Virus record (IMG/VR): IMGVR_UViG_2529292726_000018
Coordinates: 1 to 29,089 of that record
Length of the DNA stretch: 29,089 bases
DNA from: a virus
Lineage: Duplodnaviria; Heunggongvirae; Uroviricota; Caudoviricetes
Reading direction: 5' to 3' (one strand)
The notes below the pieces were generated by a model. The model was not told where the DNA came from, made no database searches, and saw nothing but the letters and a program-made list of their open reading frames with translations. The position numbers and the translations under genes were made by a program. Below, piece after piece: positions 22,201-23,411 of this stretch. Every line of letters begins with the position of its first letter. The first letter of the stretch is position 1.

Positions 22201-22597
22201 TACCTTTGGTGATCATGCCCGAGGCAGATAGCCTCAAGCACCCACAGCAATTCTAACTATCCAATACATCACTGCCAACACTTTAAACTCTTACCCTTTA
22301 AAACAAGAACAAAATTCAACCAATCAGCATTGGGCGTATACTCATATCCTAGAGAAAACAACTCTTTCTGTACTATTTATATCCATATGATTTATAAGCA
22401 TTTGCCACTTGCCATAGCCGCACAATGACAGTTTGCCATTTGATGTCAATAGATAAAAATGATCGTTTTCAATGAGTTACATACTTGCAAGGCGTTGCAC
22501 ATCAGGCCCGATTACGTCAGTATCAAAAGATTACAGATGGTGCATTACTGCCACCTCGCCTTAATGTTCCAGAACTCTCCAACTTGAGGAATTTTCA

Positions 22598-23371
22598 ATG
22601 ACATCCTTTCAATTATCTTTGATTTCTCGTGAAATTGACGGCGAAATAATACATTTACGTGCCAAAGATGGTTACATAAACGCCACATCAATGTGTAGAA
22701 CTGCGGGCAAACTGCTCTCTGATTACACTAGACTCAAAACTACTCAAGAGTTTTTTGACGAATTATCACGCGATATGGGAATTCCCATATCGGAGTTAAT
22801 TCAATCATTTAAAGGTGGAAGACCTGAAAACCAAGGGACATGGGTGCATCCTGACATCGCTATTAATCTAGCGCAGTGGCTATCGCCCAAATTTGCAGTC
22901 CAGGTTTCAAGATGGGTTCGTGAATGGATGTCAGGGGAAAGAACTACAGCAGAAATGCCTGTACATTTAAAACGGTACATGGTTAATCGTAGTAGAATTC
23001 CTCACACGCACTTTTCTATTCTTAATGAACTGACATTCAACTTGGTTGCACCTCTTGAACAAGCAGGGTACACACTCCCAGAAAAAATGGTTCCTGACAT
23101 TTCACAAGGAAGAGTATTTTCACAATGGTTAAGAGATAATAGAAACGTAGAACCCAAAACATTCCCTACCTATGACCATGAATATCCCGATGGTCGCGTA
23201 TACCCTGCAAGGCTGTACCCAAATGAATATTTAGCAGATTTCAAAGAACATTTTAACAATATTTGGTTGCCGCAATATGCCCCGAAATACTTCGCTGACC
23301 GGGACAAAAAGGCTCTCGCCTTGATTGAAAAAATTATGCTACCTAACCTCGATGGCAATGAACAGTTCTAA
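22598..23371 (+). CDS. KilA-N domain protein with an uncharacterised C-terminal domain
   Basis: 257 aa, the only substantial plus-strand gene in the central region. N-terminal IHLRAKDGYINATSMCRTAGKLLSDYTRLKTTQEFFDEL matches the KilA-N/APSES-type pattern. Own AT-rich upstream region and own terminator. Confidence 0.7.
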   Translation: MTSFQLSLISREIDGEIIHLRAKDGYINATSMCRTAGKLLSDYTRLKTTQEFFDELSRDMGIPISELIQSFKGGRPENQGTWVHPDIAINLAQWLSPKFAVQVSRWVREWMSGERTTAEMPVHLKRYMVNRSRIPHTHFSILNELTFNLVAPLEQAGYTLPEKMVPDISQGRVFSQWLRDNRNVEPKTFPTYDHEYPDGRVYPARLYPNEYLADFKEHFNNIWLPQYAPKYFADRDKKALALIEKIMLPNLDGNEQF

Positions 23372-23379
23372 ATGATTAG

Positions 23380-23406
23380 CCAGCCCCATAAGGGCTGGTT
23401 ATTTAG
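23380..23406 (+). terminator. Intrinsic terminator of the KilA-N gene
   Basis: CCAGCCC-CAUAA-GGGCUGG followed by UUAUUUAG, 9 nt after the stop codon. Convergent with the minus-strand operon. Confidence 0.6.
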
Positions 23407-23411
23407 TATTA

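Follow-up and report, generated by a model that had tools for sequence, protein, structure and literature searches.

A probable BstA-family cassette beside hok in a lambdoid Escherichia coli prophage carries a conserved palindrome within its KilA-N coding sequence

BstA is a prophage protein that co-localises with incoming phage DNA, stops that DNA from replicating and aborts the infection. The prophage that carries it escapes through aba, a 63-bp DNA element lying across the bstA start; aba elements are defined by their function, and every BstA has a cognate one (PMC8585504). The recognition of 'self' DNA by BstA was left as a question by that 2021 paper (PMC8585504), and we found no mechanistic follow-up on aba in the searchable literature. 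Here we compare this system with a KilA-N gene in a stretch of 29,089 nucleotides (nt) from a Caudoviricetes virus (IMG/VR record IMGVR_UViG_2529292726_000018, in the following the window), which holds the early and structural portion of a lambdoid, Rac-like E. coli prophage. The gene sits in an insertion (moron) cassette of leader, gene and terminator (22257-23415, plus strand, 1,159 bp), its product very probably belongs to the BstA family by homology, and its KilA-N domain is encoded in part by a perfect 22-bp palindrome (22771-22792) which, being defined in sequence and having natural variants, bears on the question of self-recognition. For the locus as a whole we lean towards a BstA-family abortive-infection cassette whose embedded palindrome would be the site recognised by KilA-N.

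The coding sequence (CDS; 22598-23371, plus strand, ATG start), identified from the list of open reading frames (ORFs) and from profile matches, specifies 257 amino acids (aa) in two domains. The N-terminal KilA-N or APSES-type winged helix-turn-helix (HTH) domain (aa 14-112, 22637-22933, plus strand) matches Pfam PF04383 with E 4e-27 and 94.5 bits against a cut-off of 23.8, and it is the sole significant Pfam family of the protein. A first-pass annotation, made by a model from the sequence without database searches, had already named this domain but regarded the remaining 140 aa as uncharacterised, which no longer holds: the BstA-type C-terminal domain (aa 119-251, 22952-23350, plus strand) was found by the PADLOC BstA model (aa 119-238, E 3e-21), by BLASTP to BstA of Salmonella phage BTP1 (32% identity, E 3e-16) and by hhalign to the same protein (probability 98%, E 2e-13). 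Furthermore, the window protein (aa 1-254, E 3e-89) and BstA-BTP1 (E 2e-150) both match PHROG 6287, 'BstA abortive infection system', along their entire lengths, and the two-domain layout of about 250-310 aa with a KilA-N or KilA-N-like N-terminus is that of BstA. Seven residues of the C-terminal domain (H123, E144, E154, D167, H194, D198 and R200) are invariant among 38 homologues. The domain thus falls into a known family at the level of sequence, as the first-pass annotation had allowed for, whereas no solved structure resembling it was found; NCBIfam gave no match for the protein, and Pfam PF26567 is precomputed for 120/120 of the best homologues.

A position next to the repressor is typical or frequent for bstA but not universal (PMC8585504). 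The window gene lies about 4.3 kb from its repressor and so lacks this trait, and phage PhiR5_2 carries a 77%-identical gene directly downstream of cI on the same strand, the classic BstA position; among divergent homologues, the upstream same-strand neighbour is a repressor with S24 and HTH domains in 5/55. With its canonical KilA-N domain and its autonomous cassette, the protein is best assigned to a distinct branch of the BstA family in the broad sense.

The palindrome is absent from the first-pass annotation. It has no spacer (CGATATGGGAA joined directly to TTCCCATATCG), spans codons D59-S65 (D-M-G-I-P-I-S) and is present as one copy only in the window, where further copies and half-sites are at chance level, a one-mismatch half-site at 26270-26280 not being palindromic in context. 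We superimposed 161 homologous loci at their Ile codon and examined 12 positions on each side of the palindrome centre, using 64 representatives below 85% aa identity as the conservation set. At the same codons, 39/64 homologues have at least 10/12 complementary positions and 15 have all 12, while the control fraction of the 45,449 other positions in the same genes that reach 10/12 is 6.6e-5. Resampling of synonymous codons gave P values of 0.0002-0.03 in most palindrome-bearing lineages and up to about 0.1 in some. Changes on both arms fill 104 alignment cells, compared with 40.9 +/- 5.5 in shuffles (0/500) and at most 50 in slid registers.

At least ten arm variants exist, and the residues flanking the centre shift in step with them (D-M..I-S, E-T..V-S, D-A..A-S, S-M..M-D, V-M..I-T). 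Examples are CCGAAACGGGAA/TTCCCGTTTCGG (E-T-G-I-P-V-S), CCGATGCGGGAA/TTCCCGCATCGG (D-A-G-I-P-A-S), GGTCCATGGGAA/TTCCCATGGACC (S-M-G-I-P-M-D) and CGATATCGGTA/TACCGATATCG (D-I-G-I-P-I-S), with CCGAAACGGGAATTCCCGTTTCGG and GGTCCATGGGAATTCCCATGGACC among the natural arms; third positions covary synonymously (GGA/ATT versus GGT/ATA, ATG-CCC versus ATC-CCG). Because both arms change together, synonymous sites included, we read the palindrome as being under selection as a nucleic acid, with the DNA dictating the local protein sequence, and it is almost certainly a functional or selfish DNA element rather than a product of chance. Enterobacteria, an alphaproteobacterium, Bacteroidota and a spirochaete share the commonest 24-mer without a single difference. 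Aligned with Mbp1, the seven encoded residues form an insertion, placed between the counterparts of helix B and the wing; it is with these two elements that APSES domains read DNA (PMC4333399). As a general feature of BstA the palindrome is ruled out by its absence from the BTP1-type clade, in which none was found at the aligned 'D-Q-G-I-D' site of 38 distinct sequences, and because this clade does without one, neither the fold nor the motif forces it.

The same sequence could be selected as RNA, namely as an mRNA hairpin, for instance one that pauses ribosomes, stabilises the message or is a target of RNase III. The predicted hairpin is stable (9-bp stem, 4-nt loop, free energy -14.3 kcal/mol as RNA and -8.6 kcal/mol as DNA, z about -3.8), and the free copies at the hok junction described below lie in transcribed intergenic DNA. 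However, G-U pairs are rare in the stem columns and mismatches such as A-A are frequent, as in the common DMGIPIT variant; complementarity continues through the centre, where a hairpin needs its loop; and the exact sequence, beyond its pairing, is conserved across phyla. Rfam 15 gave only chance-level matches over 22257-23415, the neighbouring sok/hok leader (22073-22243) being the sole pass. We consider an RNA hairpin very unlikely.

Outside this gene the palindrome is widespread. The exact 22-mer occurs in at least 119 viral-contig stretches, in at least 104 of them as a free copy, and the pattern CCGNNNCGGGAATTCCCGNNNCGG adds 57 further stretches. Among the matches listed, 3 of the 104 free-copy loci have another KilA-N ORF nearby, and most free copies lie at the hok/sok junction of lambdoid prophages, the same junction at which the cassette is found. 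There, the palindrome is the exact point at which the conserved hok-side module meets its right-hand partner, which can be any of at least four different sequences. Of 5,426 complete E. coli genomes, 667 (about 12%) cover at least 80% of a 201-bp stretch that lies beside hokD and has a free copy at its centre; the hok region of phage 933W showed no GGAATTCC. Sorted by flanking sequence, the matches listed comprise 71 distinct contexts: 22 in KilA-N ORFs, where the codon position never varies (12 of these ORFs have the BstA domain and 10 another partner), and 49 outside KilA-N genes, made up of 23 in unrelated ORFs of at least 150 aa, 15 of which read the element as G-I-P, and 26 in intergenic DNA or short ORFs.

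The GGGAATTCCC palindrome recurs, in the same place, in the genes of longer KilA-N proteins (407-456 aa) from contigs labelled as giant viruses (GVMAG; L288, with which L287 was grouped, and L319) and from other large viral contigs (L290, L337). In L290 (1940-2025), one KilA-N domain holds three tandem units, KKGIPVF, GMGIPID and ETGIPVSA. Outside KilA-N genes, L219 (13855-13914) has two different variants in frame in a 435-aa ORF (PDMGIPISPPADPVTGIPVSG), L168 (5710-6067) has two variants 335 nt apart, and in L289 (2361-2400) the core is doubled near the end of an ORF of 198 aa, in its tail. In addition, 14 of 38 imperfect palindromes are chimeras of two half-sites, each of which is known from perfect palindromes. 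Searching the literature, we found no description of the palindrome, nor any paper pairing KilA-N with 'palindrome' or GGGAATTCCC with bacteriophage. Whatever its relation to BstA, the element appears to represent an undescribed class of viral DNA element.

The main rival reading, possible though we would not put it higher than that, is that the palindrome is a selfish or recombinogenic element, either a small mobile palindrome or a junction of module exchange, which tolerates translation as x-x-G-I-P-x-x and has nothing to do with the role of the protein. The many contexts outside KilA-N genes, the tandem arrays (three units in L290, two each in L219 and L289), the in-frame copies in long unrelated ORFs, the exchange of partners exactly at the palindrome beside hok, the chimeric half-sites and the insertion relative to Mbp1 all speak for it. 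Yet no transposase, recombinase or nuclease is consistently linked to the element, it keeps to a single codon position in KilA-N genes, where palindrome-bearing and palindrome-free homologues are of equal length, and when gene pairs are scanned for breakpoints the main peak falls on the inter-domain linker (nt 330-400), with a minor one at nt 210-270, just 3' of the palindrome, that is driven by few lineages. A separate observation concerns the Roseibium algae gene (L166), whose first ~215 nt, ending just past the palindrome, are unexpectedly similar to enterobacterial genes at an overall protein identity of 56%, which hints at an exchange of its 5' part with a breakpoint beside the palindrome. 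Selfish behaviour and recognition by KilA-N are compatible and do not exclude each other.

Coming back to an abortive-infection cassette, we favour a defence role because the protein is homologous to BstA and the gene behaves as a moron, and by analogy with the described system the protein is rather more likely than not to be an anti-phage abortive-infection factor. The exclusion or defence function that the first-pass annotation had offered as its second choice has thereby gained support from homology. One protein would combine a DNA-binding KilA-N winged helix with a BstA-type effector domain; made in the lysogen from its own leader-gene-terminator unit at the hok junction, and not co-transcribed with the repressor, it would gather on the replicating DNA of an infecting phage, as inferred from homology to BstA-BTP1, halt its replication and protect the population by aborting the infection. 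Its own KilA-N domain would recognise the 22-bp palindrome, which would serve in self-recognition and self-immunity, as the counterpart of the BTP1 aba, and/or in autoregulation, and the free palindromes of other lambdoid phages would be sites read in trans. We propose KilA-N as the reader because it is the sole constant companion of the palindrome from enterobacteria and Bacteroidota to the hosts of giant viruses. That the palindrome is the cognate site of its own KilA-N domain is nevertheless a tentative proposal, and its standing as an aba counterpart is that of a candidate only.

Several findings weigh against this explanation. The aba of BTP1 lies at -29 to +34 of the gene and is not palindromic, and the analogy is thus functional and not positional (PMC8585504). 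In the validated BstA proteins (BTP1, Ec, Kp) the N-terminus is KilA-N-like but divergent, that of BTP1 giving no Pfam KilA-N match, and the identity of about 32% to them is confined to the C-terminal domain; the PADLOC BstA model covers just 43% of the length of the window protein. Moreover, 17 of the 64 homologues (the 'Q-T-G-L-P-E-x-Q' clade with Salinicola, Stenotrophomonas, Shewanella and others) have no palindrome, and the palindrome is found in KilA-N proteins without a BstA domain, in unrelated ORFs and as free copies, and may therefore have a life of its own.

Since the site lies in the reading frame of the very domain proposed to read it, site and reader would be inseparable by recombination. 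This leads to a bolder and rather unlikely idea, the 'self-encoded operator', in which a site within the CDS of its reader specifies residues beside the DNA-reading elements, so that a change on both arms would alter the reader simultaneously. If true, such an operator would yield automatically matched pairs of site and reader, the logic of cognate BstA-aba immunity contained in a single piece of DNA. On this view the tandem arrays of mixed variants in other viruses, like the free copies that hundreds of lambdoid prophages carry, would be borrowed immunity tags or decoys, allowing phages without the gene to escape, or be controlled by, the KilA-N proteins of resident elements, and the system would span bacteriophages to giant viruses of eukaryotes.

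The anatomy of the cassette is well defined by related phages. Phage vB_EcoM-606R7 (L004), which lacks the gene, aligns to 21838-22255 and 23416-23497 with 33 bp between them, giving bounds that almost exactly coincide with the 22260-23410 delimited by the first-pass annotation. That annotation was likewise right that the gene is AT-rich (39.7% GC in the cassette versus 47.6% in the window), that it has a terminator of its own and that it adjoins hok and points against the early-right genes; it is also the lone substantial plus-strand gene, as no other plus-strand ORF from about 1 to 27.7 kb reaches 110 aa without shadowing a minus-strand gene. The cassette is placed between hok/sok and the early-right genes, its gene oriented opposite to both neighbours, with hok (21920-22075, minus strand) and the sok/hok leader (22073-22243, minus strand; Rfam match, 101 bits) immediately to its left. 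Phage vB_EcoS-613R10 is 99.9% identical to the window around the KilA-N locus, a prophage at ttcA in E. coli strain 7/2 is identical to the window, and the protein is identical to RefSeq WP_000200358.1 of that strain.

A non-coding leader of 341 bp and 37.8% GC (22257-22597, plus strand) precedes the gene. E. coli A30 (L006) shows 88.6% identity over 21830-22525, then about 440 bp of unrelated DNA, with homology back from 23416; because A30 thus has the first 270 bp of the leader (22257-22525) before different DNA, the leader behaves, on this comparison, as a portable module. Within the A30 cargo (3267-3703) lies an ORF of 59 aa that has two zinc-ribbon-like CxxC pairs and matches nothing in Pfam, and the arrangement suggests that the 270-bp module is a reusable promoter or leader for small accessory genes at the hok junction. 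The claim of a promoter region of its own stands in part: reuse of the leader before A30 cargo and the orientation opposite to both neighbours argue for autonomous transcription, while the sigma-70-like candidate TTGCCA-16-AAAAAT (22433-22460, plus strand; 9/12 matches in a consensus scan) is no better than chance, two such sites being found versus 3.8 +/- 2.0 in shuffles. Two direct repeats 31 bp apart within 22401-22442 (plus strand), TTTGCCAcTTG (22401) and TTTGCCAtTTG (22432), overlap the -35 of this candidate, and TTTGCCAnTTG may possibly represent operator half-sites. A Shine-Dalgarno sequence GAGGA, read from the sequence (22586-22590, plus strand), lies 7 nt upstream of the ATG, and a terminator-like hairpin (23377-23401, plus strand) with a 10-bp stem, 6 G-C pairs, a loop of 5 and a T-rich tail follows 5 nt past the stop.

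On the minus strand, the best promoter-like match of the region (22250-22278, 10/12) belongs to hok/mok; its -35, TTGGCA, is provided by the very start of the cassette, while its -10, TAGAAT, is resident sequence. The insertion therefore preserved or rebuilt the hok promoter. Small ORFs occur at either side of the gene. A TTG-initiated ORF of 38 aa (22485-22601, plus strand), annotated in ON470590, has a stop that overlaps the ATG of the KilA-N gene (ATGA); we regard it as probably spurious because the A30 homology break (22525) lies inside it. A short hydrophobic ORF (MTWSEAFTTVGIAMAVALVVYSICRWG..., 23416-23497, minus strand) shares an ATGA overlap with the stop of a 167-aa gene (23492-23995), and its 3' end abuts the right edge of the cassette. 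In strain 2012C-4227 the equivalent 34-aa ORF is annotated (WP_001278454.1) and stands just before a free palindrome.

The first-pass annotation had preferred an antirepressor or induction switch, reasoning that a prophage probably needs one when its repressor lacks an autocleavage domain. Its premise was correct, as the repressor (27715-28134, 139 aa) consists of an HTH without an S24 domain, and a KilA-N identity alone would not exclude such a role. However, Pfam gives KilA-N without ANT, AntA or Bro domains, the leader (22257-22597) contains no LexA-box-like site (CTGT-N8-ACAG, one mismatch allowed), the C-terminal domain is the BstA one, close homologues lie downstream of self-cleaving S24-type repressors, where no antirepressor is needed, and the family occurs in many non-prophage and IS (insertion sequence)-linked contexts across phyla. 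An antirepressor is thus most improbable. A further possibility is a KilA-N regulator or host-killing protein of the phage's own cycle, controlling transcription or replication, which shares the BstA domain but not the defence function. Indeed, PHROG 129, 'transcriptional regulator', is a further match of the N-terminal domain, KilA-N occurs in fusions with a wide range of partners, and the C-terminal fold has no solved relative. On the other hand, the gene is dispensable and patchy, similar phages lacking it, it brings signals for its own expression, runs against the lytic operons and shifts between the two classic lambdoid accessory-gene spots, which is moron-like and not what a core regulator does. 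We therefore judge this role to be quite unlikely.

With regard to distribution, the exact cassette is present in 117 of 5,426 complete E. coli genomes, and the family numbers at least 2,651 database proteins, which usually bear the label 'KilA-N domain-containing protein' alone. Homologues at 52-60% identity were found in Proteobacteria, Bacteroidota, Verrucomicrobiota, Planctomycetota, Spirochaetia, Nitrospirota and a Gracilibacteria genome. In 5/55 lineages the gene is directly preceded, on its own strand, by an IS1595-family transposase gene; such genes (ISXO2-like) were seen 4-21 nt upstream in several non-enterobacterial lineages (L118, L122, L084, L126, L150 and others), which suggests that the KilA-N/BstA-like gene travels as an IS passenger, and terminal inverted repeats around these pairs of transposase and KilA-N gene gave weak candidates only (e.g., L140, 1970-1983 with 3801-3814). 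The cassette itself is probably a horizontally mobile prophage accessory gene that moved to the other accessory-gene hotspot of lambdoid phages.

Together, these results can tie a family of thousands of proteins, known by their KilA-N label, to BstA-type defence. The PADLOC BstA model matches only the C-terminal half, so that model-based detection may miss the family. More than the gene alone, it is the palindrome, both embedded and dispersed, that makes the locus worth attention: it marks a recombination junction in lambdoid phages, and as a nucleic-acid element that would dictate the local sequence of a protein across phyla, it points to selection on DNA overriding protein sequence.

Other dispersed palindromes provide points of comparison. 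The hr elements of baculoviruses are dispersed repeats of imperfect palindromes of about 30 bp, centred on GAATTC, which serve as origins and enhancers, lie between genes and are bound by IE-1. Compared by description only, they resemble the present element in that both are palindromes scattered through viral genomes, have an EcoRI site at their centre, may be arranged in tandem and occur in viruses encoding proteins of the KilA-N/Bro type, but they are intergenic, have different arms and are IE-1-bound. The PeSL cassettes of T4-type phages are units of promoter and stem-loop at module junctions; here, too, short hairpin-forming sequences stand at the boundaries of accessory genes, with the free palindrome marking the junction of hok/sok and a variable module, whereas the window palindrome has no attached promoter and belongs to one sequence family that extends over many host phyla and into coding sequences. 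Rickettsia palindromic elements and REP/RAYT are short palindromes that multiply in genomes and can be tolerated in frame within proteins, as is the case here. The palindrome described in this study differs from them in being much shorter (22-24 bp), viral and fixed in its GGGAATTCCC core, in having no associated transposase that we could see, and in its one strongly preferred position in one protein domain.

Compared with the fungal APSES/KilA-N proteins Mbp1 and PCG2 (PMC4333399), the window protein has the additional seven palindrome-encoded residues between helix B and the wing. The closest relative remains BstA-aba as described for BTP1 and its Klebsiella and E. coli homologues (PMC8585504), with which the locus shares a single prophage gene with its own terminator, a KilA-N or KilA-N-like N-terminus followed by a homologous C-terminal domain in the same PHROG, close homologues right after the repressor, and a short DNA element within the gene locus. 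It departs from BstA-aba in that its N-terminus is a canonical Pfam KilA-N domain, which that of BTP1 is not by hidden Markov model, in that the window copy is an autonomous cassette at the hok junction, and in that its candidate element, a palindrome, lies midway through the KilA-N coding sequence, whereas aba is a non-palindromic stretch of 63 bp across the start codon.

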